IMG/VR virus record: IMGVR_UViG_3300046314_000658
DNA from: a virus
Direction: 5' to 3' (one strand)
DNA length: 64,000 nucleotides
A model generated the notes under the pieces. The model saw only the letters and a list, made by a program, of their open reading frames with translations. It made no database searches and was not told the origin of the DNA. This document shows, piece after piece, positions 30,906 through 36,132 of this stretch (position 1 is its first letter; every line of letters begins with the position of its first letter). The translations under genes were made by a program, and so were the position numbers.

Positions 30906-33476
30906 TTAGGCAATTGTTCCGTAACAAGTGCCCCATGTACCAAGCGGAAGCGCAAACCCGCCAGATCCAACAACAGCTGTACCACCCCCACCGCCGTTTG
31001 AAGCGACGTAGTCACCAGGCCAAGCAGAACCCTGCGCGCCTCCTGCACCCCAAGATCCGCCTGCACCAGAGTTGCCATGTCCTGATGGTACAATAGCTCC
31101 ACCAGGGCCACTAAATGTGCCTGGATAACTCCAGCCGTATCCACCTGCAGAATTGGTCCGACCCGATTGGCCACCACCTCCACCTGGACTAGATACTTGA
31201 TATGGAGAATAAGATCCACCACCTCCTCCGCCACCACCAGCAATTACTCCGTAGTTACGTACTTTATATAATACATATGGAGTTCCATCATGTCCCAGAG
31301 CCGGACCACCAACACCTCCACTTGATGTAGGAATATCAACCACCCAATTTACAGCTTTGCCACCACCGCCACCATCATGTTGCCAGTTACCATTGCCACC
31401 AGCACCACCCATACCCACAATATAGCCGTAGTTGATGATAGTAAAATCACTGCCGACTGGCAACGATCCTCCTGTGCGCAATGCATACTGTGCCGTTGAA
31501 TTGGCACTAATTACCACACCAGTATTGATTGTTAGTGAACCGAAGACAGGTGAAATACCGTTCCAGCCCGCTGCAATTAACTTAGATCGGACGTCAATGT
31601 TCTGTTCATCACTTGAGAGTACGATGCTAGTAGTGAATTGTGTACTAACGATGTTTGATGAAATCTTGGTTGAAGATCCTGCTGCATTGGTAGCAATTAA
31701 CGTGACTGTGAATACACCATTCGTAGTATATGTGTGCGACGGAGATTGTAACGATGAAGTGGTGCCATCGCCAAAATCCCATAGCCACGAAGTTGGTGAA
31801 TTAGCTGAGGTATCTGCAAATGCCAATGTAAGTGGTGTGGCTCCACTTGTAGCGCCACTATATGTAAAGTTAGCGATTGGTGCGACAACTGTTTGTACAC
31901 ACGCAGGTACAGTAACAGTATTAGATGCAACCGTGTTCGTTACTGTAAGACTAACTGTGAACAACCCCACTGTTGTATAGATGTGAGAAGGTGATTGCAC
32001 AGTTGAGGTAGCGCCATCGCCAAAATCCCACAGCCACGAAGTTGGTGAATTCGAAGACGTGTCTGTGAAGTTTACCGTAAGAGGAGGTTGCGCAACTGCT
32101 GCCGTTGGGGTGCGGGTGAAGCTTGCAATTGGTGATGTAGTTGTGATCACCTGTGTAGTTGCTGTGTTAATAGATGCGCCAGCTTGATTAGAAGCTACCA
32201 GTGAAATATCATACACTCCATTAGTTGTCGCACTGTATTGAAAGTTTTGTGTTGTTGCAGTAGTTACAACGGCACCAGTATCATGATTTGTCACTGTCCA
32301 ACCCCAATTGGTCGGATTATTCGTTGAGGTATCAATAAATGTTGTTGACAGTGGTGGAATGCCAACTACTGGACCGATTGTATTAAAGCTAGAAACAGGC
32401 TTTGCATATGATGTGAGTACATCCGTAGCTGTGCCTACACTGGTTGAATTAGATGCAGTTAGAGTGATTGTGTATGTCCCAGGATTTGGATACGATAATA
32501 CGTGTGGACCTTCTAGATTACTAGAAACCCCATTGCCGAAATTCCACAACCACGAAGTTGCACCAAAAGTTGTTGAAGTGCACGTGATAGTTTGACCAGG
32601 TACGGCTGTAGCAGACGACAGTACAAAATCGACTGCGTTTGGTAGTGCTAAATTGGAAGAGGTTGCCCAACTCTTAGCGTGGGTGGACGTTGCATACACA
32701 AAATCAAATATCTCAAAGTATGTAGACATTCCGTGTAAACTTGAGGTTCCAGTAGGGCACCACTTGAAATCCTCACCAGAAGCAACTATCGCTGCAATCG
32801 TGTTATATGCTTCAATCCAGTATGCAGCATTGATAGCAGGTGTTCCTGATTGGGCATTAGTGTCACGAATGTGAGCTATAATCGTTTGTACCCCAATAAA
32901 CAACAACTGCCACTGTGAAGTCGTTGGTGGGGTATTCGGTGAACCAGCAGTCGTAATTATCTTGTTAGTGGGAACAGCCAACCCCAGTGCTGCTCCAACA
33001 ATCACCAACTCATCTACCAGTGCATTATATTCCAACTGCGATGCGAATACTGTACAATTAATGCCAACCCAACTATTTAAAGCTCGATCCCAATACTTTA
33101 GTGAGTTTGTACTATCATCGAACCACAAATCGGGTGGATATAGTGGATCAATTGTTGCAGGAATAGTAGGTGGAGTTGATCCAATTGTTAGACCAGCACC
33201 GATAACTTCCCACACACCTTGCTTATTATATACTTTTGGAACACCAGGTGATGTGGTCATATCCATCCAAATTTGCCCAGTGATTGGACTTCTTGGTGGG
33301 GACGGAGCAGCAAAATTCTCCAACATACGCAATACATTGGTCCACAGTGCCTCACCGTATACTGGGAACCGATAGCCAACAAATGTTAGTGATGTTGACG
33401 TATCTTGTGTAGCTGGTAGAATCTCGATGGGCGCTAGCGCAGGATCACTGCGCTTAACTATATACTTACCTGGCAT
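30906..33476 (-). CDS. Tail appendage paralog with about four PKD domains and a Gly-rich tip
   Basis: YGEALWTNVLRMLENFA; WNFGNG and WDFGDG repeats; Gly-rich C-terminus. Confidence 0.8.
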   Translation of the reverse strand: MPGKYIVKRSDPALAPIEILPATQDTSTSLTFVGYRFPVYGEALWTNVLRMLENFAAPSPPRSPITGQIWMDMTTSPGVPKVYNKQGVWEVIGAGLTIGSTPPTIPATIDPLYPPDLWFDDSTNSLKYWDRALNSWVGINCTVFASQLEYNALVDELVIVGAALGLAVPTNKIITTAGSPNTPPTTSQWQLLFIGVQTIIAHIRDTNAQSGTPAINAAYWIEAYNTIAAIVASGEDFKWCPTGTSSLHGMSTYFEIFDFVYATSTHAKSWATSSNLALPNAVDFVLSSATAVPGQTITCTSTTFGATSWLWNFGNGVSSNLEGPHVLSYPNPGTYTITLTASNSTSVGTATDVLTSYAKPVSSFNTIGPVVGIPPLSTTFIDTSTNNPTNWGWTVTNHDTGAVVTTATTQNFQYSATTNGVYDISLVASNQAGASINTATTQVITTTSPIASFTRTPTAAVAQPPLTVNFTDTSSNSPTSWLWDFGDGATSTVQSPSHIYTTVGLFTVSLTVTNTVASNTVTVPACVQTVVAPIANFTYSGATSGATPLTLAFADTSANSPTSWLWDFGDGTTSSLQSPSHTYTTNGVFTVTLIATNAAGSSTKISSNIVSTQFTTSIVLSSDEQNIDVRSKLIAAGWNGISPVFGSLTINTGVVISANSTAQYALRTGGSLPVGSDFTIINYGYIVGMGGAGGNGNWQHDGGGGGKAVNWVVDIPTSSGGVGGPALGHDGTPYVLYKVRNYGVIAGGGGGGGGSYSPYQVSSPGGGGGQSGRTNSAGGYGWSYPGTFSGPGGAIVPSGHGNSGAGGSWGAGGAQGSAWPGDYVASNGGGGGTAVVGSGGFALPLGTWGTCYGTIA

Positions 33477-33535: not shown

Positions 33536-34108
33536 TTATGTAGCCCAAACATCATCCCAAGAGCCCGACAATGCACCTTTGGCATAGTCAGTAACTTTAC
33601 TCTCGAAGAAGTTTCCGTGTGTGGGAGCGCCAACCATTTCTTCTACCCAGGGTAATGGATTTTTCTTGACTTTGAAAATACCCTTCATACCAGCAGAAAT
33701 CAATCGTCGGTCAGCGATGTAGCGAATGTACTGCTTGACTTCTGCTGCTGTAAGATTGCGCATTGTGCCACCACAAACACCAAACGCTAAATCAATGAAT
33801 GCGTCTTCCAATTTAACCATTGTTTCACAGATCGAGTAGATCTCACTCTTCAACTCATCATCCCACACATCCTTATGCTCTGAGAGAAATGTCTTGAACA
33901 GTTTGGTCATTGAAGAGCAGTGACAATTACCTGTTACAGACACTTTGTCGTTGTGCTTAATAACAAACGCACCAGTCGGCACTGTCAAACAATACACATC
34001 CGTTGCCGGAGATTCTATGTTAGTTATTGTAACGTTGTTGACCGATTCCACCGCAGGAGTGCGGCCGGCAAACATTTGTAAAATATTTAAAATATCTTCA
34101 TTATTCAT
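33536..34108 (-). CDS. nrdB: Split-intein IntC (61 aa) plus RNR class Ia beta subunit C-fragment
   Basis: VYCLTVPTGAFVIKHNDKVSVTGN|CHCSS; YIRYIADRRL, NPLPW, NFFE..VTDY; SD AAGGA. Confidence 0.9.
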   Translation of the reverse strand: MNNEDILNILQMFAGRTPAVESVNNVTITNIESPATDVYCLTVPTGAFVIKHNDKVSVTGNCHCSSMTKLFKTFLSEHKDVWDDELKSEIYSICETMVKLEDAFIDLAFGVCGGTMRNLTAAEVKQYIRYIADRRLISAGMKGIFKVKKNPLPWVEEMVGAPTHGNFFESKVTDYAKGALSGSWDDVWAT

Positions 34109-34991
34109 TTTTTGGGTTTCCTTTTTTCCAATTAATTATCCGTCCGGGTTTCCACCCTTCAGGGATTTGCTCATCTTTTGTTATACATTTTGATACGCTA
34201 CCGTCTGTGATCCACCGTTTACTATGCTTTTGAGTCATACCCAACCTAAATCCATCGGGAGGAGTCTCTCCGGGTTGTAGTTTAAGATTGACAATTCCGT
34301 CTGTATAGCACACGACTCCGCGTATATTTTTATTGTTAGCGATTTTCTGTTTTGATTCCTCGGAGTGAGCAACGAATCGAGGTATATCTGAACCTACACC
34401 TCGTTCCCATCCTGGCGGAATTGGTCGAATAGCGTTGTGTGTCACAGTTATCCGACCATCGGTAATACGAATATATTTTCCACGCCTGGTTCTACCTGCT
34501 TGTTTGATATTTTCTAACACATTTCCTACGTGGACCCGTCCGACATTGTTCGGAATATGTCCCTTTGCGGCTCTGATTTTTGCTGCAGTCGATATATTTT
34601 GTTTGTGCTCATCGGTGAAATTTAAAGAACCGTTTAATCGCTTGGTTGCCACTGATTTCAGGGCAATTGCACTTCTTTCCCCTCTGGAGTACTTTGCAGT
34701 GGTAAACCCGCCAGTTCCCCCCAGTGCAATATTGAACGTATTTTCATCGAGGATAAAGTTAATATCGACCAGTTCTTGTTCCTTTGCATATGCTTCTTCT
34801 GCAGTAAGAAATATAAACAACGTCTCTCGTTTAAACATATGCTCGCTGTATTTCTCGATTGCTCGGTTCAATAACAATCCCGACCCCAAATACCCATCGA
34901 ATTCAAAAGGGGGGAGGCGTTGGCTATGTACTCCGATGTAAACTTTACCTGTCGGAATACATGTAGTTTGATATACAATATGATAATTCAT
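34101..34991 (-). mobile_element. GIY-YIG (Seg-like) homing endonuclease between the nrdB halves
   Basis: IVYQTT..GKVYIGVH..YLGSG, FNIALGG; NUMOD3-like HSEESKQKI; xTDG repeats. Confidence 0.85.
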
Positions 34992-35041
34992 ATAGTTAGT
35001 TGGATTGTTACAAACCTATTTATACTAATCCAAGTAACTAT
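34992..35041 (-). promoter_or_regulatory. Hairpin occluding the endonuclease start region, with late promoter TATAAATA in its loop
   Basis: Arms 34992-35006 and 35027-35041 are 14/15 complementary; TATAAATA at 35017-35024. Confidence 0.75.
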
Positions 35042-36132
35042 CGTAATGAAAGTCGTGTCGCTTCATATAGCTGTAGAAATTCCTCAGCCCAATTGCTATC
35101 GATTGCATCAAAAAGCGGGACTATCCAAGATAGATCCGCTTCTCCTCGAGCAGACAATTCGCATAATTCTTTTTGCTTTTCTGTTAGGTGCTTTAGTGGG
35201 CCTTGTTTTTTACCAGATAGTATCAGACCGAAATCAATATCATTGGAATGAACATCTTTTGCTAATTTTTCAACAGGTTCTCCGTGCTGTTGACCAATCA
35301 TCCGATGATTAGGAGATGTTACCTGAGAAATTGCTGGACCGTCAAATTGAATTAAATTATCTACTTGTTTGTGTACCAACCCAGTTGGGGAAGCAAATTG
35401 AGTACGTTGCGTTATCGGATCATATGTTAGCACAGAATCAATCAGCTGCACTGCTTCGATTGGTTTCCAACCAGCTGCAGTTAAAACTTCTGTCCCTGGT
35501 ACCAGGCATTCCTCATCGATAATGCTCCAAGAAATAATTTGACCAAGTGACTTCATCAAGCCGTTGCGAGGTAAGTTTAACAACATCACAAATGAGCTGA
35601 ACAACTGCAAACCTTCAGTGAATAAGCTGAATACTGCAATCTTTTTAGCGATAGCGCGCGGTGTTGGTACAGTATCTGATTTAAAATCGTCAAAGTCGAA
35701 GATGTAGTTGTGTTTATCAACCATCTCTTTGTACTGCATAAATTCATTATACGTCGTCTCAGGTAGACCAATTGTCTCAATCAAATGAGAGTAAGCAGCG
35801 ACGTGCAGTGATTCGCGGGCTGCAAACGATGTAAGCATCATTCGCACTTCAGGTGTCTTGAAAACTGGAAGGTAATGATCAACATACCCTTCACTAACAT
35901 CCAAGTCACCTTGCGTGAAAAACCGAAGAATGTGAGTCAGGAAGTTTTTTTCTTCCTTTGTCAACTTTTTCTTCCAATCTTTGACATCCTCTTGCATAGG
36001 TAATTCAAGGTGGAGCCAATGAGACTGCTCACTCAGCAACCAGGATTCGTAACACCATGGATAATCGAATGGCCGAAATGTTTTACGAGTTGAGTGTAGT
36101 AATGATTTCTTTTTTGTTGTTTGCGCGTTCAT
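35038..36132 (-). CDS. nrdB: RNR class Ia beta subunit N-fragment plus split-intein IntN (156 aa)
   Basis: FFTQGDLDV, ESLHVAAYS, EGLQLFSSF, SIIDEE|CLVPGTEVLT; block B TSPNHRM. Cys1 at 35508; start MNAQTT at 36132. Confidence 0.9.
   Translation of the reverse strand: MNAQTTKKKSLLHSTRKTFRPFDYPWCYESWLLSEQSHWLHLELPMQEDVKDWKKKLTKEEKNFLTHILRFFTQGDLDVSEGYVDHYLPVFKTPEVRMMLTSFAARESLHVAAYSHLIETIGLPETTYNEFMQYKEMVDKHNYIFDFDDFKSDTVPTPRAIAKKIAVFSLFTEGLQLFSSFVMLLNLPRNGLMKSLGQIISWSIIDEECLVPGTEVLTAAGWKPIEAVQLIDSVLTYDPITQRTQFASPTGLVHKQVDNLIQFDGPAISQVTSPNHRMIGQQHGEPVEKLAKDVHSNDIDFGLILSGKKQGPLKHLTEKQKELCELSARGEADLSWIVPLFDAIDSNWAEEFLQLYEATRLSLR

Follow-up and report, generated by a model that had tools for sequence, protein, structure and literature searches.

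A split intein with an apparent LAGLIDADG relic, interrupted by a putative GIY-YIG endonuclease gene, in the nrdB of a lake giant phage

The closest described system to the one reported here is AceL NrdHF, a class 3 intein that is split in nature and stems from an Ace Lake contig of phage-like character (Hoffmann et al. 2020, ChemBioChem; PMC7891396; PDB 6ZGQ). Its N-terminal half (IntN) has 98 amino acids (aa) and its C-terminal half (IntC) 48 aa, it begins with Ala1, has an unusual Met70/Cys124/Thr144 triplet, is without His at positions C2:13 and C1:6, lies between the exteins SIRDE and SMHVE, and splices by the class 3 route within minutes and in high yield, with a dissociation constant (Kd) of 82 nM (PMC7891396). 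Here we describe a related split intein in nrdB, the gene for the small (beta) subunit of ribonucleotide reductase (RNR), on a 64,000-nucleotide stretch of viral DNA (IMG/VR record IMGVR_UViG_3300046314_000658; the whole stretch is called the window below). An earlier note, made from the sequence alone, had recognised this split intein, had taken extra segments in its halves for remnants of a LAGLIDADG endonuclease domain, and had known of no described split intein in nrdB; the last point is overturned by AceL NrdHF, published in 2020 (PMC7891396, PDB 6ZGQ).

The general layout of such loci is also known. Fractured genes, in which split inteins occur together with free-standing homing endonuclease genes, were described by Dassa et al. 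(2009, NAR; PMC2677866) for gp41, IMPDH, DnaE, NrdA, NrdJ, ligase and terminase; nrdB is not among them. They resemble the present locus in having two gene halves per operon, each with an intein part, and a GIY-YIG (or Vsr-like) gene in between, in having a hairpin (often with TATAAATA) 5' of the endonuclease gene and a stop that overlaps the downstream half, and in being broken where inteins carry an endonuclease domain. However, the model of Dassa et al. begins with an endonuclease-less intein, whereas the intein invaded in the window apparently still had an earlier LAGLIDADG relic. The nrdA of phage Aeh1 is likewise an RNR gene fractured by a free-standing endonuclease gene, mobE, and mobile-element-derived sequence is proposed to hold its fragments together, but it has no intein and its fragments remain unjoined (PMC3045599). 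According to a 2025 preprint, moreover, split inteins can in general arise from endonuclease domains that are degrading. Neither fractured genes (2009) nor the occurrence of this intein family, together with a GIY-YIG gene, in the gene for an RNR beta subunit (2020) is therefore new. In the literature searched, we found no description of an endonuclease relic inside split-intein halves, nor of the one-codon offset of the insertion point reported below, and what appears new within that literature is a conserved, split LAGLIDADG relic in a natural split intein with the steps documented by contiguous and full-length relatives at that site, a Cys1 member of a class-3-like family, and the offset itself.

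The split intein and its host gene

On the minus strand of the window, the RNR operon consists of a split nrdA, a small GIY-YIG-like open reading frame (ORF), nrdB-N, a 296-aa ORF and nrdB-C, and by sequence comparison the NrdB of this lake giant phage is encoded by two genes, with a split intein that would rejoin their products. We read the locus as a working fractured gene, that is, a split intein with a LAGLIDADG relic that was invaded by a GIY-YIG gene, and we give this reading a probability of roughly 0.8. The host protein is complete. The N-extein covers positions 2-193 of the Pfam profile Ribonuc_red_sm and the C-extein positions 185-281 (E 4e-18), and against the intein-less R2 structure 9DWS, the two align to chain residues 7-200 (E 1.5e-53) and 202-327 (E 3e-30), respectively. 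The insertion site lies between chain residues 201 and 202, inside E-x/x-H (a slash marks the splice junction), with Glu(-1) occupying 201 and no extein residue lost, which agrees with the second iron-ligand motif (DEE/CH) named in the earlier note. The N-extein contains the first E-x-x-H motif and the radical Tyr (FAARESLHVAAY) as well as the third ligand (FTEG) and ends in ...SWSIIDEE; both exteins are in frame, and the metal ligands and radical Tyr that we examined by eye are present. In the proposed mechanism, the phage would make NrdB as two polypeptides, NrdB(1-208)-IntN and IntC-NrdB(209-337), the two intein halves would associate into one Hint fold, and trans-splicing would join ...IIDEE to CH..., thereby restoring the second E-x-x-H iron-ligand pair and an active small subunit. 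The parts of the two genes are as follows.

36132 to 35038, minus strand: ORF of nrdB-N with IntN; Pfam Ribonuc_red_sm matches the N part
35509 to 36132, minus strand: nrdB N-extein, 208 aa, ATG at 36132; Pfam Ribonuc_red_sm E 2e-46
35215 to 35508, minus strand: splicing core of IntN, intein residues 1-98, aligned to 6ZGQ without gaps
35041 to 35214, minus strand: IntN tail (putative relic), residues 99-156, followed by the stop codon at 35038-35040
34108 to 33536, minus strand: ORF of IntC with nrdB-C, opening with MNNEDILNILQMFAG and reading to ...KVSVTGN/CHCSS
34058 to 34108, minus strand: IntC head, residues 1-17, MNNEDILNILQMFAGRT; putative relic helix 4, located after motif 2 in the full-length relatives
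33926 to 34057, minus strand: IntC linker and splicing blocks F and G, residues 18-61, with the family-wide block F/G signature
33536 to 33925, minus strand: nrdB C-extein, 129 aa and stop; its Cys+1-His start completes E-E-C-H

IntN has 156 aa, opens with CLVPGTEV and holds the key residues Cys1, Ser65, His68 and Met70, while IntC has 61 aa with block-F Cys40 (DVYCLTVPTGAF, DVYCLTVP), Thr59, Gly60 and Asn61, and a Phe at C2:13. Its end, ...KVSVTGN, is Gly-Asn instead of the usual His-Asn, as the earlier note had seen, the penultimate His being replaced by Gly. IntN residues 2-101 align without gaps to 6ZGQ chain residues 8-107 (phmmer E 5e-14), and by sequence the window intein falls into one family with AceL NrdHF, which has been proven biochemically. 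Both are of phage-like metagenomic origin, are inserted in the second E-x-x-H motif of an RNR small subunit, and have a homologous GIY-YIG gene between the halves in a fractured-gene layout; they are collinear over IntN 1-98, with Ser65, His68, Met70, the block-F Cys and a Thr at C1:5 in common and no His at C1:6 or C2:13. They differ in residue 1 (Ala with proven class 3 splicing in AceL, Cys in the window), in site (E/S-M-H in AceL, one codon downstream, E-E/C-H, in the window), in size (98 + 48 aa without a relic, against 156 + 61 aa with an apparent four-helix LAGLIDADG relic) and in host (an NrdH-NrdF fusion, against a plain NrdB-type protein), and their IntN identity is ~40%.

By analogy, the Gly-Asn end is a trait of a family with a proven active member and no defect, because AceL NrdHF is also without the penultimate His and is active nevertheless. 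Class 3 inteins have no Cys, Ser or Thr at residue 1, and residue 1 here is Cys; the class 3 triplet is nonetheless found in its Met-Cys-Thr (MCT) variant, with Cys40 and Thr59 in IntC and Met70 at IntN position N3:12, which is usually Trp. The features of class 1 are there too (Cys1, Ser65-x-x-His68, IntC Asn61 and Cys+1), but the penultimate residue is Gly. Because Cys1 is kept besides the Met70/block-F Cys/Thr triplet, either the class 1 or the class 3 route may be chemically open to the window intein.

A probable LAGLIDADG relic in both halves

Compared with the 98 + 48 aa of AceL NrdHF, the window intein has 58 extra residues in IntN and 13 in IntC; ordinary IntC parts have about 36-40 aa, by which the excess of IntC is about 20. 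The earlier note's figures of about 55 and about 20 are close to these counts of 58 and 13-20. The origin of the extra residues can be read from long relatives in the same family, which carry two motifs ~100 residues apart, IAxQADG and FIxELxxWDG, and of which 4 out of 25 match Pfam LAGLIDADG_3 (P0088 with 32 bits against a cut-off of 22.5). When the halves are aligned with these full-endonuclease relatives (MAFFT), LTEKQKELCELSARG sits on motif 1, which here reads LCELSARG, with the Asp of the relatives' QADG replaced, and the next half-domain (~100 columns) is missing. Further on, DLSWIVPLFDAIDSNWAEEFLQLYEA sits on the run-up and helix of motif 2, where DLSWIVPLFDAIDS is the run-up helix and the motif itself reads WAEEFLQLYEA; the chain reads YEATR and then stops at the place of the relatives' WDG. 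Finally, the IntC head MNNEDILNILQMFAG sits on the ...VQxIAxLxG helix that comes after motif 2, and ~25 more columns are missing. What would be left of the LAGLIDADG domain is thus four helices, three at the end of IntN, namely LTEKQKELCELSARG (helix 1, motif 1 with the Asp lost), DLSWIVPLF (helix 2) and SNWAEEFLQLYEA (helix 3, motif 2 with the WDG lost), and one at the start of IntC. The segment PLFDAID, which the earlier note had picked out, by implication as the LAGLIDADG motif, is ruled out by the alignment with full-length relatives, in which the equivalents are LCELSARG and WAEEFLQLYEA.

Three further comparisons bear on this assignment. The phmmer alignments to a dozen long forms continue unbroken to window residues 121-123, a hidden Markov model (HMM) of the endonuclease region scored the tail at 7.6 bits, which none of 2000 shuffles reached, and a relic profile built from 14 family members matched the endonuclease profile with an hhalign probability of 95.9% (E 5.6e-9). 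Pfam gave no match to the IntN tail and IntC head alone even at E 10, and a search of PDB sequences with the full-endonuclease relative P0088 returned R2 proteins and 6ZGQ but no LAGLIDADG entry. Because of the MAFFT placement, the shuffle test and the hhalign match, the view that the extra segments of IntN and IntC are remnants of the LAGLIDADG domain still present in full-length relatives, already put forward in the earlier note, is supported; the case rests on the profile comparison, the position and the family series. As an endonuclease the relic would be dead, with both catalytic acids gone and both beta-sheet halves deleted (~100 and ~25 columns).

The shape of the relic was modelled on the intein of L012, a contiguous relative that carries it, with AlphaFold2 and a 29-row alignment. 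This intein and the part of P0026 that aligns with it are 91% identical (96% for the two whole proteins), and its model (mean predicted local distance difference test, pLDDT, 95.3; predicted template modelling score, pTM, 0.89) has a Hint core with four helices and a hairpin. The helices span residues 101-111, 118-124, 129-143 and 151-163, the last of which corresponds to the IntC head, and confidence dips only at residues 141-150 (mean 78), which span the loop between helices 3 and 4. This is the loop in which every split member readable on both sides is broken, and the earlier note's proposal that the break and an unrelated GIY-YIG gene lie inside the decayed LAGLIDADG domain is supported. 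The top structural match of the model is 6ZGQ (Z 22.0, root-mean-square deviation (rmsd) 1.4 A, 140 aligned residues). Mini-inteins align to 120-147 residues of the model, and the LAGLIDADG inteins PI-PfuI, PI-SceI, TliVMA, PhoVMA and PI-TkoII to 201-214 of its 218 residues at an rmsd of 3.6-4.4 A, a wider coverage that is as expected if the helices match parts of an endonuclease domain. The contiguous relatives are, on this model, confidently predicted to pack the relic as a small four-helix bundle.

The intein family, the GIY-YIG gene and their surroundings

The family was collected by a full HMMER scan with IntN of 1.8 billion representatives, which gave 159 matches (P numbers), and by an alignment-based IMG/VR scan, which gave 30 loci (L numbers), with gene context read from the IMG/VR loci only. 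A word-indexed protein search with IntN had found just the window's own fragment, and a single-sequence scan of viral contigs had given no match where the alignment-based scan succeeded. The RNR-beta members share the signature YC(L/V)TVPxGAF...(V/I)TGN/C and come in several forms. Split N halves with the same tail are P0002-P0006, P0010, P0015, P0017 and P0018, whereas P0043 matched only to query residue 125. P0026 and P0147 are contiguous, of about 210-220 aa, with the tail and IntC head and no more, and L012 is contiguous with the relic as well. P0033 and P0092, of about 320-335 aa, lie at the identical Ex/xH site of the same host protein with the same block F/G signature, but each is one polypeptide whose endonuclease domain of ~180 aa is complete with both motifs, and a free-standing endonuclease gene is absent. 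Other long forms occur at a neighbouring site (P0088, P0089, P0109 and P0039) or, like P0013 and many more, in the first E-x-x-H motif, and P0095 and P0024 are contiguous minis without the extras. Among the loci, L001 and L002 combine Cys1, the Ex/xH site, the relic and the split; L003-L009 and L011 combine Ala1, the E/xxH site, Thr+1, the relic and the split, the C half of L011 being beyond reach; and L014-L018 are five recoveries of AceL NrdHF itself. Residue 1 is Ala in L003-L009, P0004, P0006, P0017 and AceL, and Pro in P0147. All told, the relic, the endonuclease family or, where both halves could be read, the split point recurs in at least about 20 metagenomic relatives. Among cultured phages in GenBank, there were only distant intein-like matches under annotated nrdB, none of which reaches into the tail; that of Pectobacterium phages CB7/phiTE and Vibrio phage C-ZP2022 covers 70 residues only.

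A tree built on the 100-residue IntN core has good support for 4 of its 25 branches; in it, split forms are mixed with contiguous ones, and AceL groups with relic-bearing Ala1 members (clade support 92/87). Because one related endonuclease family occupies one break point, a single ancestral fracture followed by spread is likely, and the clade in which AceL stands suggests that it is a trimmed descendant of a relic-bearing form.

The insertion points deserve mention in their own right. Two of them lie one codon apart in one motif, and each restores it: E/xxH in P0088, P0089, P0024, L003-L009 and L014, and Ex/xH in the window, P0033, P0026, L001 and L002. In the split members, Ala1 pairs with the E/xxH point and Cys1 with the Ex/xH point. 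Related LAGLIDADG inteins also sit in the first E-x-x-H motif (..E/C...N/CLH) of P0013, P0025, P0034, P0060 and others, P0009 and P0011 have two such inteins, one per E-x-x-H motif, and the sister of P0060, with its intein in the first motif, is P0089, with its intein in the second (support 98/84). The sister pair and the two-intein proteins suggest that the intein jumps between the two pseudo-symmetric metal sites. By sequence, the family also extends beyond RNR beta, because L019-L022 (IMG/VR giant-phage contigs of ~248 kb) carry a family intein with a full endonuclease domain in a non-RNR protein of ~930-1070 aa, with the junctions ...VILDE/C...VTGN/CH.... A further match, P0048, is a tandem-repeat protein of 515 aa in which IntN 117-145 was matched nine times (ITWLIPLYTSIVSYW...); this looks like a low-complexity or repeat artefact and no intein relative.

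The gene between the nrdB halves and the structure in front of it are the following.

34101 to 34991, minus strand: putative GIY-YIG homing endonuclease gene, free-standing and encoding 296 aa; it matches PHROG 314 'homing endonuclease' with E 6e-36
34987 to 35050, minus strand: predicted RNA hairpin that begins at the end of nrdB-N and reaches the start codon of the endonuclease gene, this codon being paired in the predicted fold

The 296-aa protein scores below the Pfam thresholds (SegE_GIY-YIG 16.5 against 25, NUMOD3 14 against 20.4), but the pattern IVY...VYIG...R...E...N is recognisable by eye, and it shares 42% of its residues, from end to end, with the endonuclease of L002 (E 2e-71) and 26% with the ORF of the AceL contig (E 5e-17), both of which exceed the Pfam GIY-YIG cut-off (28 and 26.7 against 22.6). 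Together with the PHROG match, these homologues make the gene between the halves a probable GIY-YIG gene, as the earlier note had it. Each split locus has an ORF of 200-320 aa in this place, starting M(N)YIVYKTTN..KIYIGIHKQ..FDGYLGSG. In the reading that we prefer, the GIY-YIG gene was inserted in the loop between relic helices 3 and 4 and would thereby have split the intein, and its protein would be the present mobility engine of the composite element.

The expression of this gene may be under particular control. The hairpin has a minimum free energy of -17.5 kcal/mol (z -4.63, with none of 200 shuffles as stable), and TATAAATA, at 35017-35024, lies in its apical region and is predicted to be partly paired. 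At the same place 5' of the endonuclease gene, relatives have hairpins (L001, L002) or TATAAATA (L008, L010, L014). At the other end, the endonuclease gene and the IntC gene share 8 nt, at the stop of the one and the start of the other (ATGAATAA), with AAGGA upstream of the IntC start. A hairpin before the endonuclease gene and a stop/start overlap are known from fractured genes and from the Aeh1 nrdA endonuclease (PMC2677866), and the locus has all the marks of a fractured gene, namely adjacent co-oriented halves with intein parts, the endonuclease gene between them, the 5' hairpin and the 3' overlap. In early read-through transcripts, the hairpin would conceal the endonuclease start codon; late in infection, TATAAATA would serve as a late promoter within the hairpin, and transcripts from there would expose the start, while IntC-NrdB-C would be translated from its own ribosome site. 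The hairpin thus probably holds back the endonuclease until late infection.

Upstream, nrdA is also in two pieces with a split intein (39061 to 37907 and 37860 to 36778, minus strand, ~46 nt apart), with the junctions ...GSNLC/LVGDTEIEI... and MLKIRKI...NNVLVHN/CNEIHL. There is no endonuclease gene between the pieces, and Pfam Intein_splicing matches both nrdA intein parts weakly. Because nrdA is split as well as nrdB, the phage RNR would need two different trans-splicing reactions. A 214-aa GIY-YIG-like ORF (36781 to 36137, minus strand; PHROG 314 E 1e-5) lies between nrdA-C and nrdB-N, in the place of mobE in T4-like phages, and bears no more than marginal similarity to the endonuclease in the nrdB gene. 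Directly 3' of nrdB-C, an 856-aa ORF (30906-33476, minus strand) with PKD-like repeats and a C-terminus rich in Gly resembles a tail-fibre protein, consistent with the phage origin of the window.

Alternative readings and meaning

The strongest alternative accepts the relic as real and regards it as young junk, a neutral leftover with no role in folding or docking. In principle the relic is dispensable, because AceL NrdHF (98 + 48 aa, Kd 82 nM) and the contiguous minis P0095 and P0024 do without it, and AceL even stands in a clade with relic-bearing members. However, among 14 members the IntN tail has a mean pairwise identity of 32% and an indel load of 6%, against 39% and 5% in the N-terminal Hint core, whereas in the adjacent IntC linker identity is down to 17% and the indel load is threefold (18%). 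Moreover, the tail's length and two Trp residues (Trp128 and Trp140, invariant in 14 of 14 sequences) were kept while the splicing core diverged to 26-71% identity, and a packed bundle is predicted with pLDDT above 90. Because its identity and indel values are near those of the core and two Trp residues are invariant, the relic is, judged by these comparisons, length-conserved, about as constrained as the splicing core and not decaying freely. The earlier note's 'decayed domain' therefore stands in that the catalytic residues are lost, but not in the sense of free decay. We consider a neutral leftover a possible but doubtful explanation, and the relic probably still matters for the folding or docking of the two halves.

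According to a second alternative, nrdB is dead or dying, the intein does not splice, and the phage relies on another reductase or on its host. The missing penultimate His, the Met at N3:12 and an odd block B would fit, and the view is limited to the window, with the rest of the phage genome outside it. Nevertheless, AceL NrdHF has the same deviations and splices within minutes in high yield; Cys1, His68, the block-F Cys, Thr, Asn and Cys+1 are all there; the exteins are complete and in frame with metal ligands and radical Tyr kept; the architecture is retained across relatives of 30-50% identity; and the adjoining nrdA is likewise kept as an intact split-intein pair. We regard a dead gene as improbable. 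Least likely of all is that the extra segments are newly evolved helical docking tails, like the charged tails of other split inteins, with a chance resemblance to LAGLIDADG: the low single-sequence HMM score, the absence of any Pfam match and the missing of motif 1 by the local hhalign alignment are outweighed by the extras occupying the endonuclease-domain place of the same-site P0033 and P0092 in the same order (motif 1, run-up, motif 2, next helix), by the profile comparison, by P0026, P0147 and L012, which are contiguous with the relic and bridge both states, and by the ~60-70 more model residues covered by endonuclease-bearing than by mini-inteins. The tail itself is hardly a product of chance, because 13 other family members retain it with its two invariant Trp residues.

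Several points weigh against reading the locus as a working fractured gene with a LAGLIDADG relic. The tail's single-sequence match to the endonuclease profile is weak, the match of motif 1 rests on an ungapped extension of Hint alignments with no separate significant hit, and hhalign put this segment at a different position. VIA-align, which was used for the structural comparison, gives aligned ranges only, not a superposition of helix on LAGLIDADG helix. Splicing activity is extrapolated from a relative whose IntN identity is ~40%, the phage may have a second, intact nrdB elsewhere in its genome beyond the window, and the tree of the 100-residue core is poorly resolved, too weak to count fractures or to order the states.

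If the locus is nevertheless a working fractured gene, the parts may fit together as follows, although we put this forward only tentatively. The relic would be a split docking module, in which three IntN helices and one IntC helix reform the old endonuclease core and drive the association of the NrdB halves, the intein would have both class 1 and class 3 routes, and the family would form a series from endonuclease to relic, to fractured gene and to the trimmed AceL form. If this is true, the window intein would stand between class 1 and class 3 chemistry as a naturally occurring intermediate.

The finding leaves the general knowledge of RNR and intein biology unchanged. Its value is that one intein family at one protein site would offer a series found in nature for a process known otherwise mainly from models, in which a mobile intein with its own endonuclease comes first, the endonuclease then decays to a small relic, a second, unrelated endonuclease gene invades the relic and breaks the host gene, and trimming finally leads to a minimal split intein that is already in laboratory use. 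The relic-bearing members are relatives of a fast and cleanly splicing split intein with an additional helical interface, which may give tighter or orthogonal fragment pairing for protein ligation. In addition, the Cys1, Ala1 and Pro1 variants, with otherwise similar active sites, are material on the origin of class 3 splicing.

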